A stretch of DNA of 64,000 nucleotides from Pirellulales bacterium (GTDB taxonomy: Bacteria; Planctomycetota; Planctomycetia; Pirellulales; Thermoguttaceae): contig CAWIRC010000003.1 of NCBI GenBank assembly GCA_963838495.1, forward strand, positions 24,999-88,998, in the 5' to 3' direction. The notes below the pieces were generated by a model, which was not told where the DNA came from, did no database searches, and was given only the letters and a program-made list of their open reading frames with translations. Each line of letters begins with the position of its first letter. Position 1 is the first letter of the stretch. A program made the translations under genes and the position numbers. Shown here piece after piece: positions 21,625 to 64,000 of the stretch.

Positions 21625-21731
21625 TCCGGCGACACCTACTCTTGCGCTTTTGGCACTAGCAATCGGCTCCGAAAGCTTAACTACCGTGTTCCCAGTGGGA
21701 ACGGATGTGGTATTTCGAAAATCGTCACCGG
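21625..21731 (-). ncRNA. orphan divergent 5S rRNA-like gene (copy A)
   Basis: Aligns end to end with the genuine 5S. It shares with copy B the clustered changes CCCAUUCCGAAC>CCCACUGGGAAC and GAUGGUAGUG>GAUUGCUAGUG, and has 4 further substitutions. The T-run is retained. Confidence 0.75.
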
Positions 21732-21955
21732 AAAGGAGTGCGGCGATCGATTAAGACCTGGGTGTTTTGGTTTCAGTGCGCTGGATGTACTGCTGGGCAA
21801 GCCAGCATTAGCACTCGGCGTAAAGTGGCGTCCGGCACAAAAAAATTCCAATATTTTTCTATTTCCGACGAATTACGCTTATATGTCGCATACAAACAAG
21901 ACGCTTGAGATTTTTATATTTGCAATCTTTTTGGTATCTTTTTGAGGGAATCATT

Positions 21956-22738
21956 ATGACAACATTAATTCGGGCAATTGTAGCCCTTTCGATCTTTATT
22001 ACACCGACTTTTATATACGCCCAAAAACCAAGACAAGACATTACGGGCGAATATTTGTTAAAAACCGAATGGGGAGGTGGGGATCCTTTTAACAAATTCA
22101 CGCCCGATAACCAGTCGCTAGGCTGCCATTCGGTAGCAATCGCGCAGGTACTCTATTATCACAGACTGACTCCTTACGGAATCGTCAATTATAAATGCGG
22201 CAAAGGATATAGTATCGAAGAGGACTTTTCAAAATATCATTTCAAATGGGATTCATTTGTTGAAAAGTTAAATGATTCAAAAAAGAATGAAACAAATGAT
22301 GAAACTGCGAAGTACATGTACCTCGTGGCCACGGCCATCAAAAAGGATTTCGGAACCGATCAATATATTAAATGCGAAGACCAGCACAAATCCCAGGTCG
22401 AAGAGCATTTCAATTGCATCTACGATTGCCGATTGAAAAAATTCAATACTATCTCTCTCGACGTGTTCCTCGAAAAAGACGGCTTTTACCCAGTTATCAA
22501 ACAAGAAATAGATCTTAAAAGACCGTTGGGCTTTTACTACAGCAACGAGAACGGTTCGGGGCATGCCGTCGTAATAGACGGTTACGTCGTCAAGGATGGG
22601 ATTTTCTACGCGCATGCCAATTTTGGATGGCAAGGCAAAAGCGACGGCTGGTACAATATGATCGAAGCCTTGCCAAAAGACATAAAACTTGTGGCGCTGA
22701 TAACCATCAAGCCGAAGAAGTCAGACGGAAAAATGTAA
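21956..22738 (+). CDS. C10-family (streptopain-like) cysteine peptidase, secreted
   Basis: Cys motif LGCHSVAIAQVLYYH, His motif GSGHAVVIDGY, then HANFGWQGKSDGWYNM. A signal peptide follows the ATG at 21956 (GAGGGA RBS). The gene is very AT-rich. Confidence 0.75.
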   Translation: MTTLIRAIVALSIFITPTFIYAQKPRQDITGEYLLKTEWGGGDPFNKFTPDNQSLGCHSVAIAQVLYYHRLTPYGIVNYKCGKGYSIEEDFSKYHFKWDSFVEKLNDSKKNETNDETAKYMYLVATAIKKDFGTDQYIKCEDQHKSQVEEHFNCIYDCRLKKFNTISLDVFLEKDGFYPVIKQEIDLKRPLGFYYSNENGSGHAVVIDGYVVKDGIFYAHANFGWQGKSDGWYNMIEALPKDIKLVALITIKPKKSDGKM

Positions 22739-22756
22739 AGTCTGATCTTTACTTCA

Positions 22757-22800
22757 CCCGACCTCTTCGGGTACCGACCGAAGGTTGCTCGGGAGAGGCG
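22757..22800 (+). repeat. degenerate REP element copy lacking the GGGTGAGGG tail
   Basis: cccgacctcttcgggtaccgaccgaaggttgctcgggagaggcg. Confidence 0.6.
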
Positions 22801-22824
22801 ACAATAGGGCCAAGAAACAAAAAA

Positions 22825-22931
22825 TCCGGCGACACCTACTCTCGCGCTTTTGGCACTGGCAATCGGCTCCGAAAGCTTAACTACCGTGTTCCCAGTGGGA
22901 ACGGGTGTGGCCTTTCGAAAATCGTCACCGG
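22825..22931 (-). ncRNA. orphan divergent 5S rRNA-like gene (copy B)
   Basis: Identical to the genuine 5S except for two clusters (loop C and the loop E strand). It shares a ~20-nt 5' flank with copy A only. Its start is exactly 1200 nt from the copy A start. Confidence 0.78.
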
Positions 22932-23087
22932 AAAGGAGTGCGGCGACCGGTTAGGATCGACGCACTATATTTCTAAGTGGGGAGTGGATAGTGAGTAACT
23001 ACCTACTACATACCAGCCATCAACGAAAGCGGTAAGCAGATGGTGAGTCTGTTTTAATAGTTCATGCCACTAATAGCATCTTTTCTT

Positions 23088-25097
23088 TTACTCACTTTTT
23101 TTCACCCTCTGTGAGTGCGTTAACTTGGCCATGGCCGCCATTACATGTTCTTCAGACCCTTGGTAGCCACATAATTCGAACAGCCACCACAAGTTCTCTC
23201 CGGCTAGAGTTGAATAGAATGCTGCAACCGCCTCATCTTCGATATACCCCGCTTCTTTTAGTATCAGCCAAGATTGGGCCCAGCCTCTCAAGAAACCTCG
23301 GGTAATGTCCGAGCCAAATCGCTTCGGGAGATAAGATTCGATTACAAATCGGACATTAACCCGCTCACGTTTCATCGTGTCCGGATGCTGAAGATTGTCG
23401 AAGAACTGCTGCGTATTCCATCTGCGTATAAACTGTCCCGCCCGCTCGCCATGCAGCTTATCAATTGCCAATGATCTTAGCAGATCGGAAATCGCTTCTG
23501 TGCTTTCGCCCGTCGGATGAAGCACTTGATCGCCGACCCGAAAGTGCTCCAATTGGATGCGATGTCCGATCTCATGCAGCATGCATCCTTCCCATTGCAG
23601 CGATGCCGGGTCTCGTGGGTGCCACGAAATGAAACCGTGTTGGAAAAGTTCCTGTCCTTTGTCGCTCGCCCACAATCCCGCCGGTTCGATGTAAAAATGT
23701 TTCGCCTCGGTCAAGGGCGGTTCGCGGCCGATCCAATCGGCGTAGATCGAAAAAACCTCCTCCAAACGCCGCGACAATTCAGCCGTTCGCTTTTGATGGC
23801 CCCGAGGAGAGTGGATTGTGAAATGGGTCGTGGTTACGGTGTCAAATTGGTATTGAAGCTTCGGATCATCCAAAACGCCTTCAACGACCTGAGTGTCTCC
23901 CCATGGTCCTAACGGCCATTCGACACGGAACCAAGCTCCCTGCGGCAGATCTCGATCGACTTGAAAACCAGGATTCTGATGCCGATCAAAAGTGGTCGAG
24001 TAAATCTGGGGACCGTTTTTCTCGGCGGACACGGTTATCGGAATGCTGATCTTTGAGCCCTCGGGAAAGTACCAGAAAATCCTATTGTCGTGGGCATCGA
24101 TAACTGGGTCCAAGAGAAACTGAGTCCGGCCGAGGGCGCTGCGCCCCAGAATCTGAAGCTGGGCTGACAATCTTCCTCCCGCCTTCAAACTTACAGTCTG
24201 GTTTTTTCTCAAATCGAGCCCTCGCGGGTATGACTCGTAGTGCCAAACATCGGGCTTCGGAAAATGCACCCAAAATACATAGTTTACAAACGGCACATTC
24301 AGGTATGCTTCCCCTCGTCCGCGGATCATGAAGGAAGTATGACCGAAACGGCGCTCCAGGTCTTGTTCGGGAAACCAAAGCTGCCATTCAATAGGACCTG
24401 GGCGATCGTCGGGGCCGAGACTATCGAATTCGATGTGCGACAGGCTCATTTGGCTGGCTCTACATTCCAACTTCGCTCGCGGATTAAACTTGGGTGCGAA
24501 CAAGAAATAACCTTCCTGTCTTTCGGCAGGACGTCTAACCAGGAACAATGCGATCTCCTCGGTAACATTCGAGCTTATGCGGCAAGTTCCTTTTGATGTA
24601 GCGCCAATTTCCGGCATGAGACAATTCGGCACCAACGCGGCAGGCGAGGCATAGATGGAATCCAGTTCGGCTGCAACGTTAGTCCGATTCCAAAAAGAAA
24701 CCGTCATTGACTGCGACGGAATCGGTCGCAGTTGCACGGTCGTGTCGGAATCGATATTTACAGTCTTGACTAGAAAGAGCCCTCGGCCGCTAACAGGGCT
24801 ATTGTAGATCCCGCCCCCACCAGCCACTATTATCCAACGTCCCTTGGGTATTCTCAGGCTTGCGTTGCCGCCAGCATCGCTCTTAACGAAATCATCATGC
24901 GGGTAAGCCAGCGGCCAGTCATCAGAGTAGACCTTAAGCGAACAACCTTCCACCGGTCGATTGGATTCATCCACTATTTGGATGCGGATAGCAACATGCC
25001 GAAATTCCTCAACTCCAGCCCGACTTGCCATCGGAAGTCCGAGTCCAAACCCTGCCAATACCCAAAAAACAATGCTTTTTCTGCAGTTTTTCAGCAT
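23088..25097 (-). CDS. secreted hypothetical protein with HExxH zinc-metallopeptidase motif
   Basis: Signal peptide, N-terminal carboxypeptidase-regulatory-like beta segment (IRIQIVDESNRPVEGCSLKVY), and MLHEIGHRIQLEH. Confidence 0.55.
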   Translation of the reverse strand: MLKNCRKSIVFWVLAGFGLGLPMASRAGVEEFRHVAIRIQIVDESNRPVEGCSLKVYSDDWPLAYPHDDFVKSDAGGNASLRIPKGRWIIVAGGGGIYNSPVSGRGLFLVKTVNIDSDTTVQLRPIPSQSMTVSFWNRTNVAAELDSIYASPAALVPNCLMPEIGATSKGTCRISSNVTEEIALFLVRRPAERQEGYFLFAPKFNPRAKLECRASQMSLSHIEFDSLGPDDRPGPIEWQLWFPEQDLERRFGHTSFMIRGRGEAYLNVPFVNYVFWVHFPKPDVWHYESYPRGLDLRKNQTVSLKAGGRLSAQLQILGRSALGRTQFLLDPVIDAHDNRIFWYFPEGSKISIPITVSAEKNGPQIYSTTFDRHQNPGFQVDRDLPQGAWFRVEWPLGPWGDTQVVEGVLDDPKLQYQFDTVTTTHFTIHSPRGHQKRTAELSRRLEEVFSIYADWIGREPPLTEAKHFYIEPAGLWASDKGQELFQHGFISWHPRDPASLQWEGCMLHEIGHRIQLEHFRVGDQVLHPTGESTEAISDLLRSLAIDKLHGERAGQFIRRWNTQQFFDNLQHPDTMKRERVNVRFVIESYLPKRFGSDITRGFLRGWAQSWLILKEAGYIEDEAVAAFYSTLAGENLWWLFELCGYQGSEEHVMAAMAKLTHSQRVKKSE

Positions 25098-25346
25098 TTT
25101 TTATTACCCTTGAAAAAAACGGCCTCGCATGAATTGGGCCATGCTTAATCAAGTTAATATACCCGCGATAAGTTTTTGGATTATACCGAAAACTATTCAC
25201 ACCATTATAAACGTTAATGAGGTTTTGCTGTAAAACTGTGAAAAAAGCGATAAAGGCAGAGGATGGAAGGTGGAATTAGAGCTGACTATGGATGGCAGGC
25301 AAGAATCAATGCATAATGCAATAGTTATAATGTGGAAAGGCGAAAT

Positions 25347-25374
25347 GTAAACTGTTTACCGTGAACTGATAACT
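25347..25374. repeat. heptad-periodic array (4 units)
   Basis: gtaaact gtttacc gtgaact gataact, 3' of the genuine 5S. It is related to the start of the 21519 array. Confidence 0.6.
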
Positions 25375-25395
25375 TTACGGCAAGAAATAAAAAAA

Positions 25396-25501
25396 TCCGG
25401 CGACACCTACTCTCGCGCTTTTGGCACTACCATCGGCTCCGAAAGCTTAACTACCGTGTTCGGAATGGGAACGGGTGTGGCCTTTCGAAAATCGTCACCG
25501 G
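25396..25501 (-). rRNA. rrf: 5S ribosomal RNA
   Basis: The reverse complement reads CCGGTGACG..CCCATTCCGAACACGG..GCCGATGGTAGTG..GAGAGTAGGTGTCGCCGGA, followed by T7. It lies 188 nt downstream of the 23S. Confidence 0.93.
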
Positions 25502-25545
25502 AAAGGAGCGGAGGCCCCAATCGTAAAGGGGCGGACCGCTAAAAA

Positions 25546-25621
25546 GCTGTCAGCCGTCAGCCATCAGCCGTCAGCCAAACAAGTTTTTCTGGCTGAAAGC
25601 TGAGAGCTGAATGCTGATAGC
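25546..25621. repeat. imperfect hairpin in the 23S-5S spacer built from two complementary heptad arrays
   Basis: Arm 1 is gctgtca gccgtca gccatca gccgtca gcc, the loop is aaacaagtttttct, and arm 2 is ggctgaa agctgag agctgaa tgctgat agc. Confidence 0.75.
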
Positions 25622-25671
25622 TAAAATGGCGTGGTAAGAAGTGACTTCCTAAACTTTTTTTCCAGCTCTTA

Positions 25672-25688
25672 GGAGCGTTGGATACATG
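25672..25688 (-). promoter_or_regulatory. 3' strand of the 23S rRNA processing stem
   Basis: RNA CAUGUAUCCAACGCUCC pairs with the 5' flank GGAGCGUUGGAUUCAUG (12 perfect bp, one mismatch, then 4 bp), directly flanking helix 1 (GGCCAAGC/GCUUGGCC). Confidence 0.8.
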
Positions 25689-25689
25689 C

Positions 25690-28610
<2,921 letters not shown>

Positions 28611-29264: not shown

Positions 29265-30202
29265 TCATAATGCTTTCCGCTTGCGAATCACATGCCAGGC
29301 CAATCCCAAACGCTCCAGCAACCGGATCTCCATATACGTCACGTCGATTTCCCACCAACGATGACCATGCCGGGCACTGCTGGGAAATGCATGATGGTTG
29401 TTGTGCCAGCCTTCTCCGTAAGCCAGTAGCCCTACCCACCACAGATTGCGGCTGTTGTCGTCGATCTCATAATTTTTATAGCCCCAAATATGCGAGGCGG
29501 AATTTACCAGCCACGTGACGTGCATCACCCACACCAGCGCAAGAAAACTCCCCATAACAAAAACGACATCCCGATATAAAAATTCCAACCAATCCAGCCG
29601 GCGAAAAGAAGCGCCGCTCCCAAGGCGAAGTGCCAGAGCAGATACGTCTTGTCCAGCAATCGCATAAAGCCGTCTTGCGACAAGTCTCGTCCATACAAGT
29701 GCATCATCTCTTGCCAGTCGGGATCGCGGGGGCGGGGAAAGAGCCAAAGCACGTGGCTCCACCAGGCCCCGTCGTGCGGCGAATGTGGATCGCCTTCGGC
29801 ATCGCTGTTGAGATGGTGTTTGCGATGCACGGCCACCCAGGTAATCGGCGGACCTTCGCCTGCCAATGCGCCGCAAAGGGCGATCAACCTTCGAAAGAAA
29901 CGGTACGTCTGGAAACTCCCGTGCGCCAACAGCCGGTGATAGCCCAAACAAATGCCCAGCCCGCCGGTGATCCAGGACAGCAATAAAAATATCCCCAATG
30001 CCTTCCAGGTGAAGAAAAACGGCGCAGCCAGTGCGCAAACATGCACTACGCCTATCCACAATACGGCCGGCCAATCCAATCCGTTTGCCCAGCGATGCTT
30101 ACGATCTGGCAACCAAGGATTCGGCTCCACCCTGGTTTGATTGGCAACCGGCATAACATCGGTTTGTGCCGAAGCAATTGTTGCACTAGTTAACGTTTCC
30201 AT
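29265..30202 (-). pseudogene. acyl-CoA/acyl-lipid delta-9-type fatty acid desaturase, one frameshift in this assembly (~29535-29545)
   Basis: His boxes HRLLAH and HRKHH lie in ORF 29525-30265; HNNHH and WVMHVTWLVNSASHIWGY lie in ORF 29265-30074. The junction reads ..LWGVFLR / (L)VWVMHVTW. The start is the ATG at 30202. Confidence 0.88.
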
Positions 30203-30414
30203 ATATATACTGTTCCTTTCGGCAAATATTTTTGTTATGAAGCAAGTCTGACGAGCGCATATCATCGATTAAGAATAAGCCTCTCTAAAAGTAATTCTCC
30301 TGTCCTATGCTCACAAAACGATGTATATAACGTGTACAAAAAGTAAAACTTATGTAAATATGGCGACCGCCGCCGAGAAAATCGATAGCGGCGAGAATGA
30401 TAAGTCGGCAGGTA

Positions 30415-48587: not shown

Positions 48588-48704
48588 GCAAAACTAAGGC
48601 AATATGCTAAGCTTATCGTGGTCATGTCGGGAGTTTATAAATACCGCAAATTTTTTAGACATTTGGAGTGATCTCGTAATTTAGCCGCGAAGCGGCGACG
48701 TATT

Positions 48705-48859
48705 GTAGCCAGGGGCGTCAGCCCCTGGGGAAAGGTTGTATTATCCATGCAAGCCCCGGAGGGGCGACATCGGACGCGGCAAAGAACAAATGTCGCCCCT
48801 TCGGGGCTTTCGCAGTTTTTAATAATTGCCTTGCCCCAGGGGCTGACGCCCCTGGCTAC
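48705..48859. mobile_element. MITE-like 155-nt element with 26-nt terminal inverted repeats and a nested inner inverted repeat
   Basis: Outer repeats are gtagccaggggcgtcagcccctgggg (48705-48730) and ccccaggggctgacgcccctggctac (48834-48859). Inner repeats are agccccggaggggcgacat (48752-48770) and atgtcgccccttcggggct (48790-48808). ATT is present on both flanks and could be a target-site duplication. Confidence 0.5.
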
Positions 48860-49008
48860 ATTAATCCGGCCCTCCGGGCCTGATGATTCTTATTCACGCA
48901 AAAAGCTAAAACATCACATAAAACCGTAGTATGTCCGCGCAAGCGCGGACATGGCGCCCGCAGCAGTGGTTCTTTATTTTCATCCTACCGAGGAGTTTAA
49001 TCGCCGTT

Positions 49009-49857
49009 ATGAGAACAAGAGTTGGCCGATCAATTTTCACGTGTCCGGGCTGGGGAATTGCTGCCGCATGGATATTGGCGGCAGTTTGTATGCTTGCGCT
49101 GGCGGGCGGGGCCGAAAAAAAGGAAGATGCCGATGCGCCAGCGCCGCCCAAGGCCCCAAAACTGTCTTCTTTCGCCCCCGCCAAGGACCTGGCCGGTCAA
49201 TTGCAGGATTACATCAAGGAAATCGATTCCACGCTGGCAAGCGAAGATGAGTACAAAGATTCGGAAGCCAAGATCGGCAGGTGCACGAACACGCTGGCGG
49301 TGATCGCGCTTTGCCTGGGGCTCGACGACGAAGACAACCAGTACAAGACCCGGGCCGCCGCGTTGATCAAGGCCGCCCAGGGGCTTGCCGCAGCCGGCGA
49401 TTATCAATCGGCCAAAAAGGCCTTCGACGCAGTCAAGGCGGCCGCCGACGGCAAGATCGCAAGCCAGGAAAAATTGAAGTGGGAAAAGGTGGCCTCCTTG
49501 CCAGACCTGATGAAGCAAGTCCCCAATATCAACACCAAGCTGAAACGAAACATAAAGGGGGCAAAGTTCAAAACCAAGGCCGCGGAGACGGCGGGCTACA
49601 CCGCGGCCATCGCCGCAATCGCCCAAGGTTCGATGGCCGACACCAGCGCGGCGAAAAATCCCCAAGAGATAAACGAGTGGTACCGATTTTCCGCCGCCAT
49701 GCGCGATGCCGCCGGGGCGGCCAACGCCGCCATCCACGCCGGCAACGAGCCCGCCGCTACCGAAGCCATGCAAAAACTCGCCAAAAGCTGCAACGATTGC
49801 CACGCCGTATTCCATCCCGAGGCAATTCTCAAGGAAGAATCCGATAATAGCCCCTGA
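49009..49857 (+). CDS. secreted protein with C-terminal cytochrome c'-like four-helix bundle (single CxxCH)
   Basis: Signal peptide, and CNDCH about 20 residues from the C-terminus after Ala-rich helices. GAGGAG RBS. Confidence 0.6.
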   Translation: MRTRVGRSIFTCPGWGIAAAWILAAVCMLALAGGAEKKEDADAPAPPKAPKLSSFAPAKDLAGQLQDYIKEIDSTLASEDEYKDSEAKIGRCTNTLAVIALCLGLDDEDNQYKTRAAALIKAAQGLAAAGDYQSAKKAFDAVKAAADGKIASQEKLKWEKVASLPDLMKQVPNINTKLKRNIKGAKFKTKAAETAGYTAAIAAIAQGSMADTSAAKNPQEINEWYRFSAAMRDAAGAANAAIHAGNEPAATEAMQKLAKSCNDCHAVFHPEAILKEESDNSP

Positions 49858-51111: not shown

Positions 51112-53283
51112 ATGTCGATTGACGTAAACCAATGGTATGCTTGCCAAGTAGGGATGGCTCCAGGATATGGCACCGGGCTAAGTACAATGTTTGAACGTCC
51201 CGCAGTATTGAAGTTTGCACACCCACTTCCTTATGGTGCCATTGTACACGATGGGGGGGTGCAATTCGTGGTCTTTTCCCGCCGCGCAACGGCCATGCGG
51301 GTGCTTTTATACGACCATGTCTCAAGCCGCGAGCCTAGCCAAAGCATCGATTTCGACCCCGATTTAAATCGCTGGGGCGATATCTGGAGCATCTTTGTTC
51401 CGGGCGTAGGACCCGGTCAGCTTTATCATTATCAAGCCGATGGCCCCAACGAACCCGATAAAGGAATTCGCTTTGATCCCAATGCCCGCCTGATCGATCC
51501 TTATGCCAAGGCCCTGGCTGGCGATTTTTTGCCGGCCGACGACGGCCTGATCCGGCCGCCCAAATGCGTGGTCATTAGCGACGAGTTCGACTGGCAGGGC
51601 GACAGGCACTTGCGCCGCTCCTTGCCGGAGACGGTTATTTATGAAATGCACGTCCGCGGTTTTACCTGCTCGCGCACAAGCGGCGCGGATCATCCTGGAA
51701 CATACCTGGGAATAATCGAAAAGATATCGTACTTGCAATCCCTCGGCGTGACCGCCGTGGAACTCATGCCGGTGCATGAATTCTCGCCCGACATCGATTG
51801 CTTCGGCCACAAACAGCAGCGCCCGAATTATTGGGGTTACGATCCCTTGGCGCTTTTCGCACCGCATCGCGGTTATGCCGTTGGCCCGGAGCCGGGTTGC
51901 CAGGTGCGGGAATTCAAGGAAATGGTCCGGGCCCTGCACCAGGCGGGCATCGAAGTGATCCTGGACGTGGTTTTCAACCACACCGCCGAGGGCAATGAAT
52001 ACGGGCCCACGCTGAGCTTCAAGGGATTGGAGAATCGTGTTTATTACATGCTGGAAAACGGGGGACGAACCTATCGCAATTATTCCGGCTGCGGCAACAC
52101 CCTTAACGGCAACCACCCCATAGTCCGCGAATTGATATTCCATTGCCTCCGCTACTGGGTGCACAACTGCCACGTGGACGGCTTCCGTTTCGACCTGGCT
52201 TCCATTTTAAGCCGCGACCGCAACGGCGAACTGATCCCCAATCCGCCGGTGGTGGAATCCATCGGCGAAGACCCGCTTTTGGCCGATACGAAAATCATCG
52301 CCGAGGCCTGGGACGCCTCGGGCGCTTACCAGGTAGGCACCTTCGGCAGCATGCGCTGGGCCGAATGGAACGGACGGTACCGCGACGACGTCCGCCGCTT
52401 CTGGCGCGGCGACGAAAATATGGTCGGACCTCTGGCCACGCGCCTGGCCGGTTCCAGCGATCTTTACCAGTCCAGCGGCCGAAAACCGTACCACAGCATC
52501 AATTTCATCACCTCGCACGACGGCTTTACGCTGAACGACCTGGTAAGCTACAACGAAAAACACAATGAGGCCAACGGCGAAGGCAACCGCGACGGCGAAA
52601 CCAATAATTTCAGTTGCAATTGCGGCGTCGAAGGCCCCACCCGGCGCACGGGCGTTGAAAATATCCGCACGCGGCAAATCAAAAACATGCTGGCCACGCT
52701 CATGCTCAGCCAAGGCGTGCCCATGATCCTTTACGGCGACGAGTGCCGCCGGACCCAGGGCGGAAACAACAACGCATATTGCCAGGACAACGCCGTTTCC
52801 TGGTTCAATTGGTCGCTGCTCGAAAAAAACCAGGCCCTGTGGCGGTTCTGCCAGGCGCTGATCGCCTTTCGCCGCGCCGAACCTAGCGTGCGCCGCACGA
52901 ATTTCCTCTACGGCGAGCCCCCGCTTCCCAGCGGATTTCCCGACGTCACCTGGTCGAGTGCCGCCGGAGACACGGTCGATTGGACGGACGAGGAAAGCAC
53001 CTTGATTTGTCTGCTGGCCGCCGCGCTGCGGGAAAATCCGCTCTCACCGGAGAATCATCACCTGTTGATGATGTTCAACGCCGGGATCGACCCGCAAGAG
53101 TTTATTATTCCCGCCTCCGTGGGACGAATCGCCTGGCGGAAGTTCATCGACACCGCCGCCGAAAGCCCGGCCGACATCTATCCTTTACTGGACGGCCCGC
53201 CGCCTCCGCCTAATGGCCGAGTGTCGCTTGAAGGGCGCTCGATGCTCGTTTTCATCGCCCCCGATGAAACAATCGTGTTTTGA
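51112..53283 (+). CDS. glgX: glycogen debranching enzyme (GH13 isoamylase type)
   Basis: VILDVVFNHTAEGN, VDGFRFDLASIL, IAEAWDA and INFITSHDGFTLNDLVSYNEKHNEANGE. The start is uncertain (51112, 51154 or 51187). Confidence 0.9.
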   Translation: MSIDVNQWYACQVGMAPGYGTGLSTMFERPAVLKFAHPLPYGAIVHDGGVQFVVFSRRATAMRVLLYDHVSSREPSQSIDFDPDLNRWGDIWSIFVPGVGPGQLYHYQADGPNEPDKGIRFDPNARLIDPYAKALAGDFLPADDGLIRPPKCVVISDEFDWQGDRHLRRSLPETVIYEMHVRGFTCSRTSGADHPGTYLGIIEKISYLQSLGVTAVELMPVHEFSPDIDCFGHKQQRPNYWGYDPLALFAPHRGYAVGPEPGCQVREFKEMVRALHQAGIEVILDVVFNHTAEGNEYGPTLSFKGLENRVYYMLENGGRTYRNYSGCGNTLNGNHPIVRELIFHCLRYWVHNCHVDGFRFDLASILSRDRNGELIPNPPVVESIGEDPLLADTKIIAEAWDASGAYQVGTFGSMRWAEWNGRYRDDVRRFWRGDENMVGPLATRLAGSSDLYQSSGRKPYHSINFITSHDGFTLNDLVSYNEKHNEANGEGNRDGETNNFSCNCGVEGPTRRTGVENIRTRQIKNMLATLMLSQGVPMILYGDECRRTQGGNNNAYCQDNAVSWFNWSLLEKNQALWRFCQALIAFRRAEPSVRRTNFLYGEPPLPSGFPDVTWSSAAGDTVDWTDEESTLICLLAAALRENPLSPENHHLLMMFNAGIDPQEFIIPASVGRIAWRKFIDTAAESPADIYPLLDGPPPPPNGRVSLEGRSMLVFIAPDETIVF

Positions 53284-53313
53284 TGATCTATTCCCTCATA
53301 ATCTCATATTTAG

Positions 53314-53340
53314 CCCCCGGTGAATACACCGGGGGTTTTG
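53314..53340 (+). terminator. intrinsic terminator after glgX
   Basis: cccccggtg aata caccggggg followed by tttt. Confidence 0.75.
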
Positions 53341-53492
53341 CATGTATCTTTATCCCGCGTTACAAACATAACGAATCTTGACTTAAAAATTCCTTTTTGT
53401 TCTACTTATCGCTTGCGGCTCATGCCTGTAGGGTGCGTGAAACGCACCATTCCCAAACACGCTACGCGTGAATCGCTGCAAAAGGAATTTTC

Positions 53493-55818
53493 ATGGTACC
53501 GTGCAAAGTCAATTCCGTTCTCGAACTGGTTGGAAACACCCCGCTCGTGCGCATCAACCGCATGAATCCGGTTGCCGGCGTCGAGGTTCTGGCTAAGCTC
53601 GAAGTGCTCAATCCGGGCGGATCGGTAAAGGACCGCATTGCCTTAAGGATGATCGAGCAGGCCGAGGCCACGGGCGAACTGATTCCCGGCAAAATCGTGC
53701 TGGAGGCCAGTTCCGGCAACACGGCCATCGGGCTGGCCATGGTTTGCGCGGTCAAGGGCTACCAGCTACTGGTCACCATGAGTGAATCGGCCAGCGAGGA
53801 ACGCAAGCGGATTCTCAAGGCCTACGGCGCCCAAATCCTTTTAACCCCCGGTTACCGCGGCACCGACGGCGCAATCGAAGAGGCCTATCGCCTGGCCCGC
53901 GACGAGCCGGCAAAATACGTCCTCGTCAACCAGTTCAACAACGAGGCCAACTGGAAGGCGCATTACGACGGCACCGGCAAGGAAATCTGGCAGGCCACCG
54001 GCGGAAAAGTCAACGTCGTCGTCCTTGCCATGGGCACCACCGGGACGCTGATGGGCATAACCCGGGCGCTGCGCGACCTGAATCCGGCCGTGCGCGTGGT
54101 CGGCGTCGAGCCCTTCAAAGGCCACAAAATCCAGGGCCTCAAAAACATGAAGGAAAGCTACGTGCCGGGCATTTTCAAGCCCGAGGAATTGCACGACATC
54201 GTCCACGTCAACGACGATTCGGCCTACGAAACCGCCCGCCGACTCGCGCGTGAAGAGGGAATTTTTGTAGGTATGAGCGCAGGCGCCGCCATGAAGGTGG
54301 CCCTGGACGAGGCCCGCACCCTGGGCAAGGGCACGGTCGTCGCCCTTTTGCCCGACGGCGGCGAACGCTATCTTTCCACCTCGCTTTTCGTCTCCGATAC
54401 CGTGCCCGAGCCGCTTCGCTTCCACAACACCCTTTCCGGACAAATGGAAAAGTTGGAGCCTGTCTCGCCAGGAAAAGTCACCATTTATTCCTGCGGCCCG
54501 AGCCTGGACGGACCTCCCGACCTGGGCCTCTGCCGCCGGCTGGTCTTTTCCGACGTCCTCCGCCGCTATCTAGAATATCGCGGCTACCAGGTAAAGCACG
54601 CCATGAACCTGGGCGACATCGACGACCGCACAGTGCGCGAGTGCCTCAAAAGCGGAAAAAATCTCCGCGCTTTCACCGCCCACTGGGAAAAGATCTTCTT
54701 CGAAAGCCTGGATACACTCCGCGTCAAGCGGGCGCAGCACTACCCCAAGGCCAGCGAACACGTCGCCGACATGGTCGAACAAACCCGCGCACTGCTGGAA
54801 AAGGGCCTGGCCTACGAAAAACTCCGCTCCGTCTACTTCCGCATCAACAGCTTTCCCGATTACGGGCGGCTTTCCGGCATCGAGCCCAAGCGGATGCAGC
54901 TCGGCTTCATCGACCAACTACGACTATTACGAAAAGGACAATCCCGGCGATTTCGCCCTTTTCAAGCGCCCCACGCTGGCCGAACTCAAGGCCGGCATAT
55001 TCTGGCCCACTCCCTGGGGCAACGCGAGGCCGGGCTGGCACGTCGAGTGCGCCTGCATGGCCGTCGGTTGCCTGGGCCAGCCGCTGGACATCCACACCGC
55101 CAGCACCGACCTCACCTTTCCCCACGGCGACAACGAGATCGCCATCGCCCGCGGCCTGCAAGACAAACCCTTTGCCAAGCTCTGGATGCACTGCGAAGTG
55201 GTCATGGCCGAGGGGAAAAAAGTAAGCCGCGCCGCCGGCAACGATCTAACCCTGGCCGAACTCCTGGAGCAAGGCTTCATCGGCCCGGCAGTCCGCTACT
55301 GGCTCTTGGCCGCGCATTATCGCACCGTGCTGAACTACTCCGCCGTCGAACTCCAGCGGGCGGCGAATTGCGTCGCCCGGCTGAACGAGTTTGTCGCCCG
55401 GTTGAACAGCGTTGCCGGCGGCCGGCAGAGTCCGGAAGTCGGCCAGGCCCTGTTTGCCACCCGCGCCGCCTGGCAAGAGTCTCTGGACAACGACTTGAAC
55501 ATGCCCAAGGCCCTGGGCCGGCTCTTCGCCTTCATCCGCATGGTCAACCGCCTGCTTAACGGCGGCGAACTCGACGCCGACCAGGCCCGCCAGATCCTCG
55601 ATTTCATGCGCCAGGTAAATAAGGTCCTGGATGTCATCGATTTCCGCCCCGCCGAATCCGACGAAAGAATTTCCAAGCTAGTCGAAGCCCGCAACGCCGC
55701 CCGCCGCAAAAAAGATTTCCCCAAAGCCGACGCCCTGCGCCAAGAACTCCAGACAATGGGCATCCTCCTGACCGACAGCTCCTCCGGCACAAAGTGGAAA
55801 CGATCCGTCCATAATTAG
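53493..55818 (+). pseudogene. fusion of PLP-dependent cysteine synthase (CysK/CysM family) with a full-length cysteinyl-tRNA-synthetase-like protein lacking canonical HIGH/KMSKS; one frameshift in this assembly (~54905-54915)
   Basis: The N-terminal part has NPGGSVKDR, SSGNTAIGLA, GTTGTLMG and MSAGAA. With no intervening stop it continues LRFHNTLSG..IYSCGPSLDGPPDLGLCRR..DIDDRTV. After a +1 shift it reads NYDYYEKDNPGDFALFK..RPGWHVECACM..LDIHTASTDLTFPHGDNEIA..GKKVSRAAGN..ARRKKDFPKADALRQELQTMGILLTDSSSGTKWKR. Confidence 0.85.
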
Positions 55819-55931: not shown

Positions 55932-58900
55932 TTACCGGCTGCGGCGCCAGTAAATTCCCAGCCCCATGGCGGCCAGCATGAGCATTGCCCAAGTGGCCGG
56001 CTCCGGTACAGGAGAAATTCCTCCTGCAGCCGCGGGTTGCGGGCCGCCCGCGAGAGGATTAATTCTCAAGGTGGCCCCCGCGCCTATCGTCAAGGTGTTT
56101 ACCCTGACGGAATCGGCGGTTACGGAGGGCATAGCCGTGCCGTTGCCGATATTAAGCGTACCGGTGCCGGAGACTGCGTGCAGGGCAACAGTCGAGCCGG
56201 CTACACTATTAATCTGCAGCGTACCAGAGTTGACTGTGGTGTTGCCGCTGTAGTTGACAGTAGAGCTGGTAATGATCACGGTGCCGGGACCGGGGCATGT
56301 CAGGCCGCCCCCGCCCGTGCTGCCGATACTTCCGCTCACGGTCATTATCGCGAGGGGATTCGCGGCATAGTCGTCGCGTGCGCCGCCGGCGTTGAATTGC
56401 CCGCCGCCGCTGCCAAGGGAAACCGCTCCGGAAACCGTATTATCGGTGCTGGCGGAATTCGACAAGGCGTAGAGCTGGCCGCCATGTAGAAGCGCGACGT
56501 TCTTGGTCAAAGCCGTGGTGAGAACGTTCATCTGCAAAATCGACCCGCCGGAGTTCTGGCCCAGGGCGGTTCCGTCCACCGTAACCGTGCCCGCATTGCC
56601 GAGCGTGGTTGTGCCTTGCAGGCTTAATACGCCCTCGTTGACATCGACGCTGCCCAGCGCGGTATCAACGTTGGCGTTCACCAACATGATCTGGTTGTTG
56701 CCGACCTTGGTAAGGGTGTAGGCGTTTCCACCCGTGTTCAGGGTGGGGTTTCCGGATGATGCCCGCAGGGCCCAACGACCTATAAATTCACTGCCGGGCA
56801 AACCGGAATTGGTGGTGACGGTCGTGGACTTGCCTCCAATCGTCGTATTACCGCTTAAGGTGACATTGCTCACATCGTATTGAGTAACGAGCGGCGCGTT
56901 AACCGTATTGTTATTGACGATCGCGCCGTTGCTGCTCACGCCCGCGCCTTGCACGGTGATGGGTTTGGCATAAAGCTGATGGACGTTGAGGTCCAGGGTG
57001 GCTCCATTGCCGATTGTCAGCGCGGCGGATGAGCTGCCCAGGGCGCTGTCGTTGCCGAGGATAATTGAACCGCCGCTGATCGCTGTGGTGCCGGTGTAAC
57101 TGTTAGATGAGTTAAGGGTCAAGCTGCCCGAGCCCGATTTTGTCAGCGTGGTGCCGCCGCTTATTGGTCCACCGGCTAAAGTGTAATTATGGCTGGTGTT
57201 GTTGTCTACGGTGATCGCGCCCGGAGACACGCCCGTGGAAGCAATATTCACGGTAGTGTTCGCCGAGGAATTGTCAAAGGTGACCATGTCGGTGATGTAG
57301 AACACATCTGGATTAACCGCGGGCGGGCCGGGATTGTTCCAGTTTGCGGTTGATTTGACGTCCCAGGCGTTGGTGTTCGTCCCTCCTATCCAGGTCAGGT
57401 TGCCCACGGTGCCGGTCACCACCAGGTCGATGGAGTTGGTTGCCGGGTTTTTAGCCACGGCGTAGCCTTGCCGCGAGTCGATCAGCGGTATTGCCCAACT
57501 AGGCGAATTTTCGCTGATTGAGTTGTAATGGATCAACTGGTAGTGAGTGCCGCCGGTGCTGCCTTGCAAATAACCACCGACAATATTGACGGCGACGGCG
57601 GTGGTTCCCCATAGGGTCAGCCCCCCGCCGGTTACATTTATCAGGTCGTTTCCACTGGACGGATTGTTAGACAGATCCAGAGTGATCGTGCCCTCGCCGT
57701 TATACCCAAGCGTGAGCCCACCGGTAAAGGTAAGAACGCCGACCGATCCGGTGTTCGTATTAGCGCCGGAGCAATGTTGGTTCTATAATTGTCGGAAACC
57801 GCGCCGCTTATCGTGCCTGTGCCGGACAGGGTGGGAGGTACGGGGCTGGAGGAGTAGCCCATGACAATTGGGCCGGCCCAGGAGTTGGAGATGACCACTG
57901 TTCCGTCATTGTGATTCAAGGTGCCGTTAAACGTGTTGACGCCATTGAAGATCGCCGTGCCCGGCCCCAGCTTTGTTAAGGTATCCGAACTGCTGCCGCC
58001 GCTGTCGTTTTGGATCGCGCCATTGATGGTCATAACCACACCGGTGTAGCTGGCGGCGGAGTAATTGGCGATATCATCCCTCGAACCGCCGGTGTTAATC
58101 GTGCTGCCTTGACCGGATTGGTTAATGACATAGACAGCACCGCTAAGGGTGTTGTCGGTGGCCTGCGAGTTGCTTTGGGCATAAAGCATGCCGCCTTGCA
58201 GATGGACCTCCTTGTCCAACGCGGCGGCTAAACTGTATAAATTCAAGATCCCTCCGGATTCGACGGTAACTTTATTAGCCGGGTTGCCCAATCCGTTGGT
58301 GCCCTGCTGCAGGTTTATAATACCCTGCTTAATATCAACGTCGCCCAGGGCCGAATCGATCTGCACGCCCACGAACGATATCTGATTGTTGCCTACTTTT
58401 GTAAGTTTGTAGGCATTTCCGCCGGTGCTCACTTGAGCGAGCGTGGCCGTGGACCCCGTCATATCCCAGCGGCCGGCGTTGGGCGCACCAGGATAATTGG
58501 CATTGGAAGCTATCGTGGACTGGCCACCGAAAGTCGTATCGCCGACTAGGGTGATGAATCGCAAGGCATTTAGGGGAGTAGCGGAGGACTCGGTGTTATT
58601 ATTGACGATAGCGCCTGCGTCGTTTACGCCCGCGCCTTGGACGGTAACCGGCTCAGCGCCAGATTTCGGTTGTTTATATCCAGGGTGGCGCCGCTGGAGA
58701 TCGTGGTGCCGCCGACCGTGGTGCCCAAGGCGGCGTTGTTTCCGGGTTGCAGCGTGCCTGAGGTAATCAGAGTCACGCCGCTGTAGTTGTTCGACCCGGA
58801 AACTGTAAGGGTGTTGGTTCCTTTTTGCTCCAGGCTGCCCGTCCCGGATATTGCATTGGATAACGTTGTTCTGGTGGAACCGTTCTGGTAGAAAACCAAT

Positions 58901-61900
58901 TGGCCGCTATTGGAAATCGCGCCCGTGCCCAAGCTTCCATAGTTGTTGCCCGGGCCGTCGCCGATTTGCAATACGCCGTTGTTGATGGTGATCGCGCCGG
59001 TGAAATCGCTGCCGGCATTGACCAGGGTTAGAGTTCCGGTACCGGTCTTGTACAGCCCGGTGATGCCGGTGATCTTGAACCCGGCGAAAGTATAATTCTT
59101 CGTGTTGTTTTCGACGGTAATCGAGGACGGCGTCACGAAGCCGTGTGTTCCGTCGTCAGGGGCAATATTTACGGTGTTGTAGCTGGAGTTGTCATTGAAG
59201 GTGACGTCATCGAAGTTATAAAAATAATTATCCGGCTCAGAGCCGCTCCATATTTTATTCCCCGAGTCGAAGACGTCCCGAGAAGTTGATGAAGATCCGC
59301 CTACCCAGGTCAGGTTTCCGTTCGAGCCTATCACGCTCAAGTTGACCTGTTTGGGAGCGGTACCAGTGTTAAAGGTGATGTTGAAGGTCCGCCGTGTGAA
59401 TCCGGGTACGTTCAAGAGATTTAGTTGATTCGTGGTGCCGGTTATAGTTCCGCCGACATTCATCAGGCGATAACTGGGGTTGCTCGCCAAAGTACTTATA
59501 TTGGCTACATTAATATTGGTGGTCCCGGTAAGCGTCAGGTTGCCGCCGGCGCCGCTGCTGGCGACCAGGTTTATCAAGTCGCTTCCGCCTGTGGTTGCCA
59601 GGTCGTAATTGATCTGGCCGCCCCCGCTCAGCGCAAGATTGTTCATGGTAAGAGTGCCCACATCTCCGGCAGCAGCGGTTGCTCCCGGAGCGATGAGCAC
59701 GCCGGATGCGTCGGTGACCGTGCTAGTTGAGCCGGCAGCGCCACCGTGCCCGTCCCGGTCAAAGTAGTGGTGGTGCCCTGTGTGGGATTGTTAAACATCG
59801 TCAACGAACCCGCCATATAATTGTTGACAATTAAAGTTCCATCCTTGTGGTTAATGGTGCCCGCAAAGGAGCTGGAGCCCCCTAGGGTAATGCTGCCGGG
59901 CCCGAGCTTGGTCAAGACAGCCCCGCTCGGTTCGGTGATCGCGCCGTTAAGATACATTCTCGCAGCGGGGGTCCTGTAGGTCGTGTCGAGATCGGTCCGC
60001 ACGCCGCCGGCGTTTATTACGCCTCCGGTGCTTTCTACGGCTATCGGCCCAACGACCGTGTTCGCGCCGGTGGAATCGCCGGGGTTTAGAACGACATATA
60101 TAGCGCCGTTGTTTTTAAGCGTGATATTCTTGTTTAGGGGTGTGGTTAAACAGTCTAACTCCAAAACCGTGCCGAACAAGCCTGCATCTGTACTATTACC
60201 CGTCTGGCCGATACCCGTGCCGTCTACGGTGACGGTTCCCGCCGGGTTGCCCAAATTGGTTGATCCTTCCAAGCGCAAAATGCCTGCTTTTAAATTGACG
60301 TTGGCCAAAACAGTGTCAACGTTGGTGTTATACAAGACGATTAAATTGTTGCCGACCTTGGTCAAGTTATATGCATTTCCGCTCGTGGAAATGCTAGGCG
60401 GATTGTCCGCGTTGTACATCTCCCAGCGGCCGGCTGTAGAACTGGGCAAACCGGAATTATTGGTACTGGTCGTGCAAGTGCCGCCGAACGTGGCGTCACC
60501 GCTCAGCGTGATGCTGGGAAGATCGGCCGTGTGGCTGGTGATAGTACCGGTATATGTGCTGGTGGAATTATTCACGATTACGCCTAGGCCGCCCGCGCCT
60601 ACGCCGCTGACGGTTACGCTTCTACCCCCTAATGTGCCGTGGTTTATATCAAGCGTGCCGCCTGGGGACACGTCCGTGCCCCCGTTGATGACCAACGGGC
60701 TGCTGCCCAGCGCCCCGTCAGGGCCGAGCCTAAGTTTGCCCCCTGAGACAGTCGTCGTGCCCGAGTAGTCGTTGGACATGTTAATCGTCAATGTCCCTGT
60801 ACCTTGCTTTAAGAGGGTGGTGGTGCCGCTGATCCGATTGATCCCGGCGGTGGAGTTGGCGGCTATAACATAATCGTTGTCGGAATTTACCGTGATCGAA
60901 CTGGGATAAAACCCGGCCACCGCGCCGGTAATAGTGTTGTTGATATTGACAGTGGTCGCTGTTCCGGGTGTACCACCGGTAAAGTTCAAGGCGTCGAGGT
61001 CGTAATATTTGTCCGCGCCGGGAGGGGATCCGCTCGTCCAGTTGGAGGTCGTAGCCCAATCCCAGATCGCCGTAGTGCCCGCGGTCCCGGCCCACGTTAA
61101 GGTGTTCCCCGGAACGGCAGTGGCGATAGTGATATCAATACTGCCCGAGCCGTTATCAACGGGGTCATTAATTTTATTTCTGGTCGTGTTATTTGTTATC
61201 CAAGTGACGGCTCCCCCAGAGTTGTGCTTGGTTGTATAGGTAATCACGTGGTAGGTGCCGGTAGAAAAGGAAGTACCCAGCGGGGAGACACTCACATAGT
61301 TAGTGCCGCCGTTCAGGTAAAGATCGGTTGCGGCGACCTGGTCGTTGCCAGCGCCGCTGCTGGAGAATTCCGTATAGTAAGTCACACCGGCAGGCAATGT
61401 CAGATTGCTGACGTTGAAGGTGTTTGTGGCGGAGTTCCGCATGTCGATGGTGCCGTTGTAGTAACCCGTGTTGGTAATCGTCAGCGGTTCGGAATTAAGC
61501 GTGTAGTTGTTATTGACTCTGAAATTGGTGACGTAAAGGCCGCCCAAATTGGTGATGCTTCCACCGCTGACGGTAAAGTTGGTTATGGGAATAATCGTGC
61601 TGCCGTCGTATCCGATGTAGTTGCCCTGCATGTTGAGAGTGCCGCCGGTCATGGAAATATTGGAGTAGCTGCCGATAGATGGACTTTGAGGGATGCCGCC
61701 TGCCAGAATGTTTGCACCAAGGGTCACGGTTGCGGTGCCCCTGATATTCAGCGTGCCGGTCGAAATTCCAGCCGTCATGCCTCCCGAAGGCGTAGGCCCT
61801 TTTCCCAGTTTTATGCCGCCGGTGCCTACTATTAGATTTGCCGTGCCGTTGACATTAAGGGTGCCCTGATCTGCGCTACCAGTGCCGGTTCTATTAGTAT

Positions 61901-63128
61901 TTAAGTCTACAGTCATGTTACCAAGAATGATGCTGGTTGCATCGACGGTGCCGCCGTTGAAAGTTAATGTTCCTCTGCCGCCGTATGATGCATTAGTAGT
62001 AGTGGAACAGGTCGAGGTGCCCATTACGAGGGTTGAGACCTGGATGTCCGCGATGCCGCCCGTTAAATCCATTGTCCCATCGGCGATATTAGTGGCGCCA
62101 GTTCCATTACCCGTGTTGTCGCCAATGGATATTTGCGTCACGCGGCTGGTCCCGTCAATGCCGCGCATCTTTAAAGTAGGACTGGTGCCGCTATAAGCAG
62201 GATTGAACCGCATGACGGCGGTTTGCCTTCGCCCGGCAACATATACGTTCTGCACGTTTATCGTATTTGTCTGGCCTAGGTAAAGAAAAGTCGTTTGGCC
62301 CGTCGCATGGTTGCCTGCGAATCCGAGTATCAATCCCCCCTCGATAGTGTTGATGACAAAGCTATTGCCGGAATTAGTGTACGAGTTGGTGTTGTTCAAT
62401 GTAATTGTGTTCGTCTGGGCAAGGTACATTGTGCCGTTGGGGCGATCCACCATGGAGGTGTCTGTAGTCCCTGTAAAAGAGATTAATATCTGGTCCACGT
62501 TGGCATTAAAGGAAGAAAGTCCCGACAGATCGAGTACCGAGTTGTGCGTTCCGGCGGTTGGGTTGACCTGGTTGACTACAATGTCGCCGCCGGTGTTCCC
62601 GCTCGTGGAGCTGGAAATGTCCATTTGACCGCCGCCCGTGAATAGGGTCAATGAAGTGTCATTTGCGCCGGAGGCGGAGGCGCATGCCCATAACGAAGAA
62701 CTGCCGTCTACGCCCCAGGTCGAAGGAGGAGTAGCCGCGCCTGAAATCTTCATCAGAATGCTGGGGGCGACATCTGTGCATTGAGCGTTGAGCGTTGGAG
62801 CATAGATCAGAGATTTGATCGTAATGCTATGGTCCACTACATTGGTAATTGTGGGAGGAGGACCACTATATACTTGCGTTCCCGAGTTCCCAAAAGTCAC
62901 GTCATCAGTGTTGCCGGGAACAGAACCCGTGCTCCAGTTGCCAGTATTACTCCAATAGCCCACGCCACTGGCGCTTGTGCGGGTCCATGATACGGCAGCC
63001 GCCGAGGCCGGATAGGCCAGCGCCAAAACAATCGCGGCCGTAAGCATGAACCGCATTGCTCGAACGACCAATTTAGAATCGAAATTAAACATCTGACTAT
63101 CACGACTGATTTGTTTAGTCGGACTCAT
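55932..63128 (-). pseudogene. giant (~2400 aa) PEP-CTERM-anchored surface protein of autotransporter-associated beta-strand repeats; three frameshifts in this assembly
   Basis: The ATG at 63128 has AGGAG 7 nt upstream. The signal peptide is MRFMLTAAIVLALAYPASA. GTGTLTL/NSYTGTT-type repeats run throughout. The C-terminus is PVPEPATWAMLMLAAMGLGIYWRRSR. The four ORF pieces join by hand translation at ~59741, ~58660 and ~57767. Confidence 0.85.
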
Positions 63129-64000
63129 GAGGTAACTCCTGTCAAAAAAATATGCCGGATATACTAAAGAAAACACTCTAATCGGCTGTTAAACAAACGT
63201 AATGATTTATTATTTGGCGGCTGGGCTTATTCGTTTTTTAAAAACCAAAGCATGGGCCTTCGTTTCCCATGAATCCAGCCGGCAAGGTTTGCATGAAACC
63301 GATGGTTTTTATTATCCACCAAGTGCCAGCGAGTAAAACAAAAGATGAACGCCGGCTATTTACGGCATTCAAATAAAAACTGGCACGTCCAACGGTTTAT
63401 AACCGCTGGCGCATAATATAGCTCATCAGCCTCACCACTACTCCCACCGACTATAAAAGCCAAGGCCAAACCAAAATAATTGCCGTTATCCTTCCGGGAA
63501 AAGGTTACCGACAGCTCTTTAGCTTTTCTATCTCAACTTCATTTCCAGTGGAATTGCGATTAAATTTTACACCAGTGAAAAAATTACTCCTAAGTTGCTG
63601 TATCAGTATGTAACCAAAATCGCGACAGCGCCTAAACAACGATCGCAGTGGAAAAATTATCACAACAACCGACTTGTTTGAGGGCCGACGGTTGAGCGCG
63701 GCTATATGTAACTCTCCTTTTTTAAGATTAAAGCTTACATTCCTCATTGTAATTATTATTAAAAAATACGCAACATTTTATTTCGGAAAAACTTATGTCT
63801 ATTTATGTCCCATGATGGATATTTTTGTCTCCTGCCCCACCCGTTTCCAGGCAGGTCAGCCATTATATGGATTGTATAAATAGGCATTGCACCGAACCGA
63901 GTTATGATATCCCCCAAATAGCTTAATTAGTTCCCAAAAAGTTTTTTTCTTGCAGATTATGTGCGCAATATGACCGGTGGATAGAAGAACCTCCTACCGT

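Follow-up and report, generated by a model that had tools for sequence, protein, structure and literature searches.

A cysteine synthase fused to a cysteinyl-tRNA synthetase-like module without HIGH and KMSKS in a Pirellulales bacterium and its relatives

We analysed a 64,000-nucleotide stretch of DNA from a Pirellulales bacterium (GenBank assembly GCA_963838495.1, contig CAWIRC010000003.1, positions 24,999 to 88,998 of the forward strand), referred to below as the window. A gene at 53493-55818 on the plus strand joins a CysM-type cysteine synthase to a full cysteinyl-tRNA synthetase (CysRS)-like module in which the ATP-pocket motifs HIGH and KMSKS are replaced and the residues for cysteine and tRNA(Cys) recognition are kept. 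The reading that we favor, with about even confidence, is that the product combines a cysteine synthase with a pseudo-synthetase that does not adenylate but binds cysteine and tRNA(Cys), and that it is not a housekeeping CysRS. All features of the gene given below lie on the plus strand.

The ORF (open reading frame) listing and a three-frame translation showed that 53493-55818 is made up of two overlapping ORFs in different frames. Frame 0 starts at the ATG at 53493 and runs through the CysK/M-type domain into the N-terminal half of the CysRS-like part, after which it continues as low-complexity nonsense, and frame +1 carries the C-terminal half up to the stop codon at 55816-55818. An earlier note on this DNA had placed a frameshift at 54905-54915. 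DNA alignment of the window gene with 10 relatives, all of them in frame, confirmed the shift from frame 0 to frame +1 and moved it a few bases upstream, to 54903-54906, where the window has the four bases GGCT and every relative has three (GA-T). When one base was dropped, the product read ...KRMQLGSSTNYDYYEKDNPGDF across the site; the repaired protein of 774 amino acids (aa), also given as ...EPKRMQLGSSTNYDYYEKDNPGDF..., shares 88% identity over its full length with the uninterrupted database protein P0001. One uninterrupted frame runs across both domains at full length in 59 of 72 loci from GTDB species genomes, so the earlier claim of a real PLP (pyridoxal 5'-phosphate) enzyme fused to a full CysRS was borne out.

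Eleven of the 72 loci were multi-frame, and ten of these were MFD metagenome-assembled genomes (MAGs) with nanopore-style contig names, with the breakpoint at a different place in each. In the window itself, a fatty-acid desaturase gene at 29265-30265 on the minus strand carries a second frameshift and is split into two overlapping ORFs, which match positions 2-168 and 147-232 of the FA_desaturase profile. Because all relatives lack the extra base, broken copies are almost confined to nanopore MAGs, and the desaturase gene is likewise split, the one-base frameshift at 54903-54906 is most likely an assembly error. A programmed frameshift was ruled out, since none of the 10 aligned relatives carries the extra base. 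A real insertion, which would make the gene a recent pseudogene of this one genome, is also quite improbable; the frameshift does stand in the sequence as given, but both halves read cleanly, with no further stops and with the same 88% identity to intact homologs, and the desaturase gene and the scattered breakpoints of the nanopore MAGs argue against it as well.

Pfam profiles divided the product into PALP (aa 11-288, E = 7e-72), tRNA-synt_1e (aa 322-624, 6e-79), DALR_2 (aa 660-712, 1.4e-08), and CysS_C (aa 723-768, 4e-07). The N-terminal half, a CysM-type PLP domain of fold-type II (aa 8-299, 53514-54389), passed the NCBIfam cysKM profile TIGR01136 (358.3 bits, cut-off 344.15) and did not pass the cysM equivalog TIGR01138 (351 against a cut-off of 394). 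Its best match in the PDB was E. coli CysM (2bhs, 6e-76), and its IQGLKNMKESY loop aligned without gaps to the short CysM loop. The PLP site is complete: it has the Schiff-base lysine K46 in NPGGSVKDR (53628-53630), invariant in 38 family members, the Asn substrate loop, the Gly-rich phosphate loop, and the serine to PLP N1, and the conserved PLP-site motifs SSGNT (53709-53723), GTTGT (54033-54047), and MSAGA all lie within the PALP domain. Because the lysine, both loops, the serine, and the short CysM loop are present, the N-terminal half is predicted to be an intact, working CysM-type PLP-dependent cysteine (or S-sulfocysteine) synthase and to provide the catalysis of the fusion protein. It thus resembles CysM, or O-acetylserine sulfhydrylase B (2bhs; K12339), in all PLP-site motifs and in the short loop; it differs by the 470-aa CysRS-derived extension at its C-terminus and, in Pirellulales members, by the substrate loop SSGNTA instead of TSGNTG.

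The two halves are joined by a linker (VSDTVPEP, aa 300-307, 54390-54413) with the lowest conservation of all regions; in the AlphaFold2 model, the predicted local distance difference test score (pLDDT) falls below 50 around it, at residues 289-303. The linker is followed by a CysRS-like Rossmann catalytic domain with its connective peptide (CP) insertion (aa 308-624, 54414-55365), the DALR_2 helical domain (55471-55629), and the C-terminal anticodon-binding domain CysS_C (55660-55797). HMMER matched the CysRS-like domain to the PDB entries 8qhp (1.6e-92) and 1li5 (2e-77), and the C-terminal half scored just above the cut-off of the NCBIfam cysS profile TIGR00435 (342.5 against 340). The four-domain architecture is that of canonical CysS (EC 6.1.1.16; E. 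coli structures 1li5 and 1u0b), with 36% identity to E. coli CysRS. No further CysRS homolog was found in the 64-kb window.

To locate the catalytic motifs, we aligned the protein with HMMER to CysRS proteins of solved structure and with MAFFT to the E. coli enzyme. The results showed that DLGL stands at the HIGH position (54519-54530), followed by the invariant residues C347-R348-R349, and that KVSRA stands at the KMSKS position (55219-55233), the second lysine being replaced across the window's clade by arginine (R579, invariant in 38 members) and the last serine by alanine. The earlier note had proposed exactly these two replacements. At 54612-54638, G374 of NLGDIDD replaces T68 of E. coli CysRS, and RTVR replaces KIIK, whose lysines have been described (PMC10655014). 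The region 55048-55137 holds WHVEC, DIH-TAS (55093-55104) in place of DIH-GGG, and FPHGDNE; in the last of these, HHENE has become HGDNE, with H235 changed to G, E236 changed to D, and H234 and E238 kept as H544 and E548.

These substitutions are fixed or nearly so. Of 120 relatives, 113 have DLGL and the others close variants of it, and none of the 120 has a histidine at either HIGH position; FPHGDNEIA (HGDNE) was present in 118 and DIH-TAS in 114. The HIGH motif is absent from all 120 closest database clusters and from the 72 GTDB species genomes. In an alignment of 150 representatives of all CysRS relatives, canonical CysRS reads C, HIGN or HIGH, T68, HxGG, HHENE, and KMSKS at the six diagnostic positions, where C, DLGL, G, HTAS, HGDNE, and KVSRA are found in the clade of the window protein. 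It has been documented for the homolog MshC that a mimic of the adenylate phosphate is held by the second histidine of HIGH together with the first lysine of KMSKS and that T83, the equivalent of T68, binds the cysteine amino group (PMC9736012). Taken at the level of these motifs, the C-terminal half probably no longer activates cysteine with ATP; besides its fusion to CysM, the altered motifs are what sets it apart from canonical CysS.

In contrast to the ATP pocket, the sites for cysteine and tRNA are retained. The zinc ligands C28, C209, H234, and E238 of E. coli CysRS correspond to C334 (54492-54494), C519, H544, and E548, all present and invariant in the family. The earlier note had claimed that the zinc positions were kept, which the alignment confirmed, and had named the histidine of DIH, which was wrong: the ligand is instead the first H in FPH(G). 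In the anticodon-binding domain (55702-55740), R737, F742, D746, and R749 align with E. coli R427, W432, D436, and R439. Three of these contacts, R427, D436, and R439, are conserved in the family, and the same residues of E. coli CysRS were targets of a recent engineering study (PMC13449415). The module therefore probably still binds cysteine, in a zinc thiolate pocket, and tRNA(Cys), in line with the recognition functions that had been proposed for it.

When 5.8 billion protein clusters were searched, the PALP plus tRNA-synt_1e architecture came up in at least 120 of them, with lengths of about 770 aa and 65-88% identity. Among GTDB species genomes, the 72 loci came from Pirellulales/Thermoguttaceae MAGs and from Desulfarculales, including the isolates Desulfocarbo indianensis and Dethiosulfatarculus sandiegensis, with a few MAGs under other labels. 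The window copy was closest to Thermoguttaceae MAGs (83% DNA identity, the best among GTDB loci). The MAGs JAZDIQ01 (loci L036, L045, and L054) and JAMOVV01 (L039 and L048) have two to three fusion copies each, on separate contigs, which could be paralogs, strain mixtures, or binning artefacts. The fusion was also seen in L077, labelled Ignavibacteriota, and L071, labelled Rickettsiales, and both labels look wrong; the DNA of the L077 gene matches that of the Pirellulales-type window gene at 82% identity, which points to mis-binning or to a wrong label.

Relatives of the CysRS-like domain were collected by an exhaustive phmmer search, and a neighbour-joining tree with 50 bootstraps was built. 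The DLGL group was recovered in 50 of 50 bootstraps and is nested in a clade of 14 representatives (35 of 50), so a DLGL-type clade, for which the earlier note had suggested looking, does exist, as does the wider set of proteins with the fused architecture. Every member of the 14-representative clade with readable gene context is linked to a PALP enzyme, and the fusion is present in all complete DLGL loci. Two clade members that seemed to stand alone could be viewed in their loci; because they sit 2-4 nucleotides 3' of a separate PALP gene of 296-305 aa, the partnership between CysM and the CysRS-like protein is obligate, whether fused or split. In the split version at L078 (4209-7293), the PALP gene (4209-5126) and a CysRS-like gene with HIGL and KMSRS (5131-6537) are followed by a ThiF-family E1-like gene (6553-7293) in an apparent operon. 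The ThiF link was seen in L078 only and was absent at L081 and L082, and it was not built upon.

The motifs of the wider clade vary in degree. The fused relatives P0124 and P0127 have HLGN or HLGL with KMSRS; P0125, P0126, and P0132 have HIGL or HIGT with KMSRS or KMARS; and P0156 is a fused TLGL form. P0130 and P0131, also fused, have lost the zinc cysteine C209, which became serine, and have no trace of KMSKS, which indicates that aminoacylation is dispensable in the wider clade. Outside the PALP-linked clade, P0134 (a Nanoarchaeota MAG, MFW6014224.1) is a CysM-CysRS fusion with canonical HIGN and KMSKS, and P0164 (an ENA contig of 167 kb) joins CysE, a hexapeptide acetyltransferase, to a CysRS with canonical HIGH and KMSKS; these look like independent fusions. 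The nearest canonical representative, P0129/P0285, is a standalone gene on unrelated metagenome contigs.

We then asked how the two halves have been constrained. Nei-Gojobori ratios of nonsynonymous to synonymous substitution rates (dN/dS) in 40 close pairs were lowest in CysM (0.07), intermediate in the CysRS-like core (0.11), and highest in the helical and anticodon domains (0.17); only close pairs were used, since the values for distant pairs were saturated and misleading. Mean pairwise identity among 38 members was 81% in CysM, 70-73% in both halves of the Rossmann domain and in its CP insertion, and about 50% in the helical and anticodon parts. Because dN/dS is low, at about 0.11 in the core, the CysRS-like half is not decaying and is under purifying selection.

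The AlphaFold2 model reached a mean pLDDT of 79.5 and a predicted template modelling score (pTM) of 0.58. In Foldseek, it superposed on structures of CysRS, among them the complex 1u0b with tRNA, at template modelling (TM) scores of 0.81-0.91, and on CysK/CysM structures at 0.8-0.87. None of the structure matches to the model was a PDB entry spanning both halves.

Whether a cell with the fusion also has an ordinary CysRS could be read in DcD-1, a genome-reduced ciliate endosymbiont of the Desulfarculaceae (2.8 Mb), whose contig is locus L055 and carries an intact DLGL-type ORF of 779 aa. In the KEGG orthology (KO) table of DcD-1, OFFAJMMG_01336 is listed as K01883 (score 461) and as K12339, CysM (score 391), and OFFAJMMG_00980, which adjoins ispDF, is listed as K01883 with a score of 712 (PMC13103400, supplement). 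The fusion lies above both KofamScan thresholds in DcD-1, K12339 denoting S-sulfocysteine synthase. With OFFAJMMG_00980 at 712 beside OFFAJMMG_01336 at 461, DcD-1 has a separate, higher-scoring cysS. The earlier note had considered that the fusion might be the only cysS of its genome; a second K01883 gene is present in DcD-1, and this holds for that genome. The fusion is the sole cysteine-synthase KO in the DcD-1 table, which has no entries for CysE, CysK, SepRS (K07587), or the phosphoserine pathway. By extension from DcD-1, a separate canonical CysRS probably charges tRNA(Cys) in the planctomycete of the window. The loss of motifs, the purifying selection, and the separate cysS of DcD-1 together support the proposal, made from the first inspection of the gene, of a role beyond plain aminoacylation.

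These results bear on the alternative that the protein remains active in both functions, as cysteine synthase and as CysRS, its ATP site having been rewired so that newly made cysteine is channelled onto tRNA(Cys). We regard this as improbable. All ATP-contacting motifs are altered together, an acidic residue stands at the first HIGH histidine, and T68 is lost; the full CysRS architecture, the zinc site, and the anticodon contacts are nevertheless kept, new arginines adjoin both motifs, and the family passes the TIGR00435 cut-off and the KofamScan K01883 threshold. Fusions with canonical motifs (P0134 and P0164) do exist, but they lie outside the clade, in which the sister lineages P0130 and P0131 lack C209 and KMSKS and aminoacylation is dispensable. 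DcD-1, moreover, retains its separate canonical cysS despite genome reduction.

The explanation that we favor is that of a pseudo-synthetase attached to the enzyme that makes its amino acid. The C-terminal half would be a class-I CysRS descendant in which a fixed new set of residues has taken the place of HIGH, KMSKS, the GGG ribose loop, and two residues of the pocket, and the charging of tRNA(Cys) in the cell would be done by a separate canonical CysRS. The zinc site would grip the cysteine thiolate, the C-terminal domain would read the tRNA(Cys) anticodon, and the binding of cysteine and/or tRNA(Cys) would be coupled to the attached cysteine synthase, either as feedback by cysteine or as activation by uncharged tRNA(Cys). 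Our confidence in the regulatory step taken alone, namely that binding of cysteine and/or tRNA(Cys) controls the attached synthase, is tentative and falls short of even. A related reading, in which the module is a dedicated tRNA(Cys) reader that senses uncharged tRNA(Cys) to switch synthesis on, or positions tRNA(Cys) for ATP-independent sulfur chemistry, appears possible but doubtful.

Several points weigh against the favored explanation. Conservation of the old pocket seems to exceed what a plain sensor would call for, and the new fixed set of residues (P-D-L-G-L-C-R-R, G68, TAS, GD, and KVSRA) is poorly explained by a regulatory model. The loss of adenylation is read from motifs only. Class-I enzymes tolerate some motif variation, TrpRS having TIGN and some ArgRS lacking KMSKS, and a phosphate site could have been restored by the new arginines R349 and R579. 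The evidence that a canonical cysS accompanies the fusion comes from a single genome, of the Desulfarculales, and the geometry between the two domains is not constrained by the model, as its pTM of 0.58 indicates. Functional hints from the surroundings are also lacking, in the form of conserved neighbours, linked tRNA(Cys) genes, or riboswitches. ORF clustering across 75 loci gave no conserved partner beyond close relatives, and the gene contexts that were compared were all different; tblastn with E. coli CysRS matched only the fusion in every locus, so that no second cysS lay near the gene; no tRNA-Cys gene was predicted by ARAGORN for either the window or 60 scanned loci; and Rfam gave nothing credible as a regulatory RNA or riboswitch upstream, in 53200-53560.

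The protein might instead carry out sulfur chemistry on tRNA, which we consider unlikely. According to this alternative, tRNA(Cys), charged by the canonical CysRS or bearing another residue, docks on the module, and the PLP enzyme or the remodelled pocket acts on the bound amino acid, for example to form cysteine persulfide or S-sulfocysteine on tRNA or in a conversion like that of SepCysS. It would be consistent with the retained anticodon contacts and zinc ligands, with the strong purifying selection on an old active site that has a new fixed residue set, and with the family-specific conserved cysteines C85, C347, and C384 of the Pirellulales set, of which C347 is, however, a valine in DcD-1. 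Precedents can be found in cyclodipeptide synthases, which are HIGH-less, class-I-like users of aminoacyl-tRNA (PMC2922099), and in canonical CARS, for which synthesis of persulfides with the help of PLP was reported (PMC10655014); among the four PLP lysines reported for CARS, however, K269 and K73 are replaced by arginine, and K76 is variable in the family (arginine here). The PLP half is, moreover, an ordinary CysM of fold-type II, with a carboxylate-binding loop suited to a free amino acid, and neither a SepRS KO in the DcD-1 table nor linked tRNA genes in the window and the 60 scanned loci were found.

The remodelled pocket might also bind a small molecule made by CysM that is not linked to tRNA, such as S-sulfocysteine or another anionic cysteine derivative, and process or buffer it, the tRNA-binding parts being vestigial. 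The KofamScan assignment of the N-terminal half to S-sulfocysteine synthase (K12339), the retained zinc site, and a pocket enlarged by the changes of T68 and H235 to glycine, which gains R349, R379, and R579, would agree with such a function. We regard it as very improbable, as the anticodon contact residues are specifically conserved, the anticodon-binding part is under purifying selection (dN/dS 0.17), and the ORF clustering gave no supporting neighbour genes.

The favored explanation, a non-adenylating pseudo-synthetase on a cysteine synthase, has parallels among known systems. HisZ is a HisRS paralog that serves as regulatory subunit of the ATP-phosphoribosyltransferase HisG, and GCN2 has a HisRS-like domain. 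The logic would be the same here: a synthetase homolog without catalytic motifs is obligately linked to an enzyme for the same amino acid and would be present alongside the real synthetase. The likeness does not extend to homology, since the HisZ and GCN2 modules belong to class II, and it differs further in that the partner carries out the final step in making cysteine and in that regulation is only proposed.

SepCysS is a fold-type I PLP enzyme that needs the class II SepRS. The fusion resembles the SepRS/SepCysS system in bringing a PLP enzyme together with tRNA(Cys) recognition, but its PLP half has the different, fold-type II fold of PALP/CysM and no SepRS KO was listed in DcD-1, and an identity with SepCysS was rejected on the fold.

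CysRS paralogs with non-housekeeping functions have been described, namely MshC, the cysteine ligase of mycothiol synthesis, and CysRS* of Desulfobacterales, which charges a SelC-like tRNA, and these two are the only ones given for CysRS in a 2022 review of synthetase paralogs (PMC9437257). The window protein is neither. It scored 165 bits against the MshC profile TIGR03447, far under the cut-off of 485, and it has the anticodon domain that MshC lacks; MshC, in turn, keeps HIGH and KMSKS and has no link to CysM. CysRS* is active, has no anticodon domain, and is likewise not linked to CysM. Unlike a sole functional CysS, finally, the fusion stands beside a separate canonical cysS in DcD-1.

The rest of the window was surveyed as well. 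A 23S rRNA gene lies at 25688-28610 on the minus strand, within an rRNA region that spans 21624-28610, and three 5S rRNA matches were found on the same strand at 25395-25502 (72.6 bits), 22824-22932 (54.6 bits), and 21624-21732 (48.2 bits), the two weaker ones being extra copies 2.5-3.8 kb beyond the end of the operon. No 16S rRNA or tRNA gene was found in the 64-kb window. Two full-length matches to the small RNA family Acido-Lenti-1, at 48683-48728 (minus strand, 53.4 bits) and 48836-48881 (plus strand, 52.8 bits), exceed the gathering score of 37; they lie in opposite orientation about 110 bp apart, just upstream of the ORF at 48931-49857. Downstream of the fusion gene, large minus-strand ORFs with PATR repeats and a PEP-CTERM anchor (55932-57569, 57641-58564, 58624-59700, and 59643-63176) may be pieces of one or two giant surface proteins whose genes were interrupted by indels. 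A third indel-broken gene may lie in the region 2532-4890 on the plus strand, where the ORFs 2532-4241 and 3718-4890 overlap in different frames and an alpha-amylase match was found in the first only.

No description of a CysK/CysM-CysRS fusion or of a HIGH-less CysRS was found in the literature searched, and we rate these proteins as an undescribed, conserved family of synthetase-derived pseudo-enzymes. In NCBI and JGI records, its members are named 'cysteine--tRNA ligase' or 'cysteine synthase'. Because the family passes TIGR00435 and K01883, genome-based inferences on Cys-tRNA formation, genome completeness, and cysteine metabolism can be wrong in the lineages that carry it.

The family provides a natural class-I synthetase without HIGH and KMSKS that is strongly selected, has its amino-acid and anticodon contacts intact, and is partnered with a cysteine-making enzyme. 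The graded series from HxGN with KMSRS, through DLGL with KVSRA, to forms without the zinc cysteine could serve to follow the change from synthetase to pseudo-enzyme. If the module is a tRNA(Cys) reader, a class-I synthetase fold would have been reused without adenylation across a family of Pirellulales and Desulfarculales, and if it senses uncharged tRNA(Cys), it would be a bacterial, metabolic counterpart of GCN2. Should the module read the status of tRNA(Cys) in this way, translation demand would be directly tied to cysteine supply in these bacteria.

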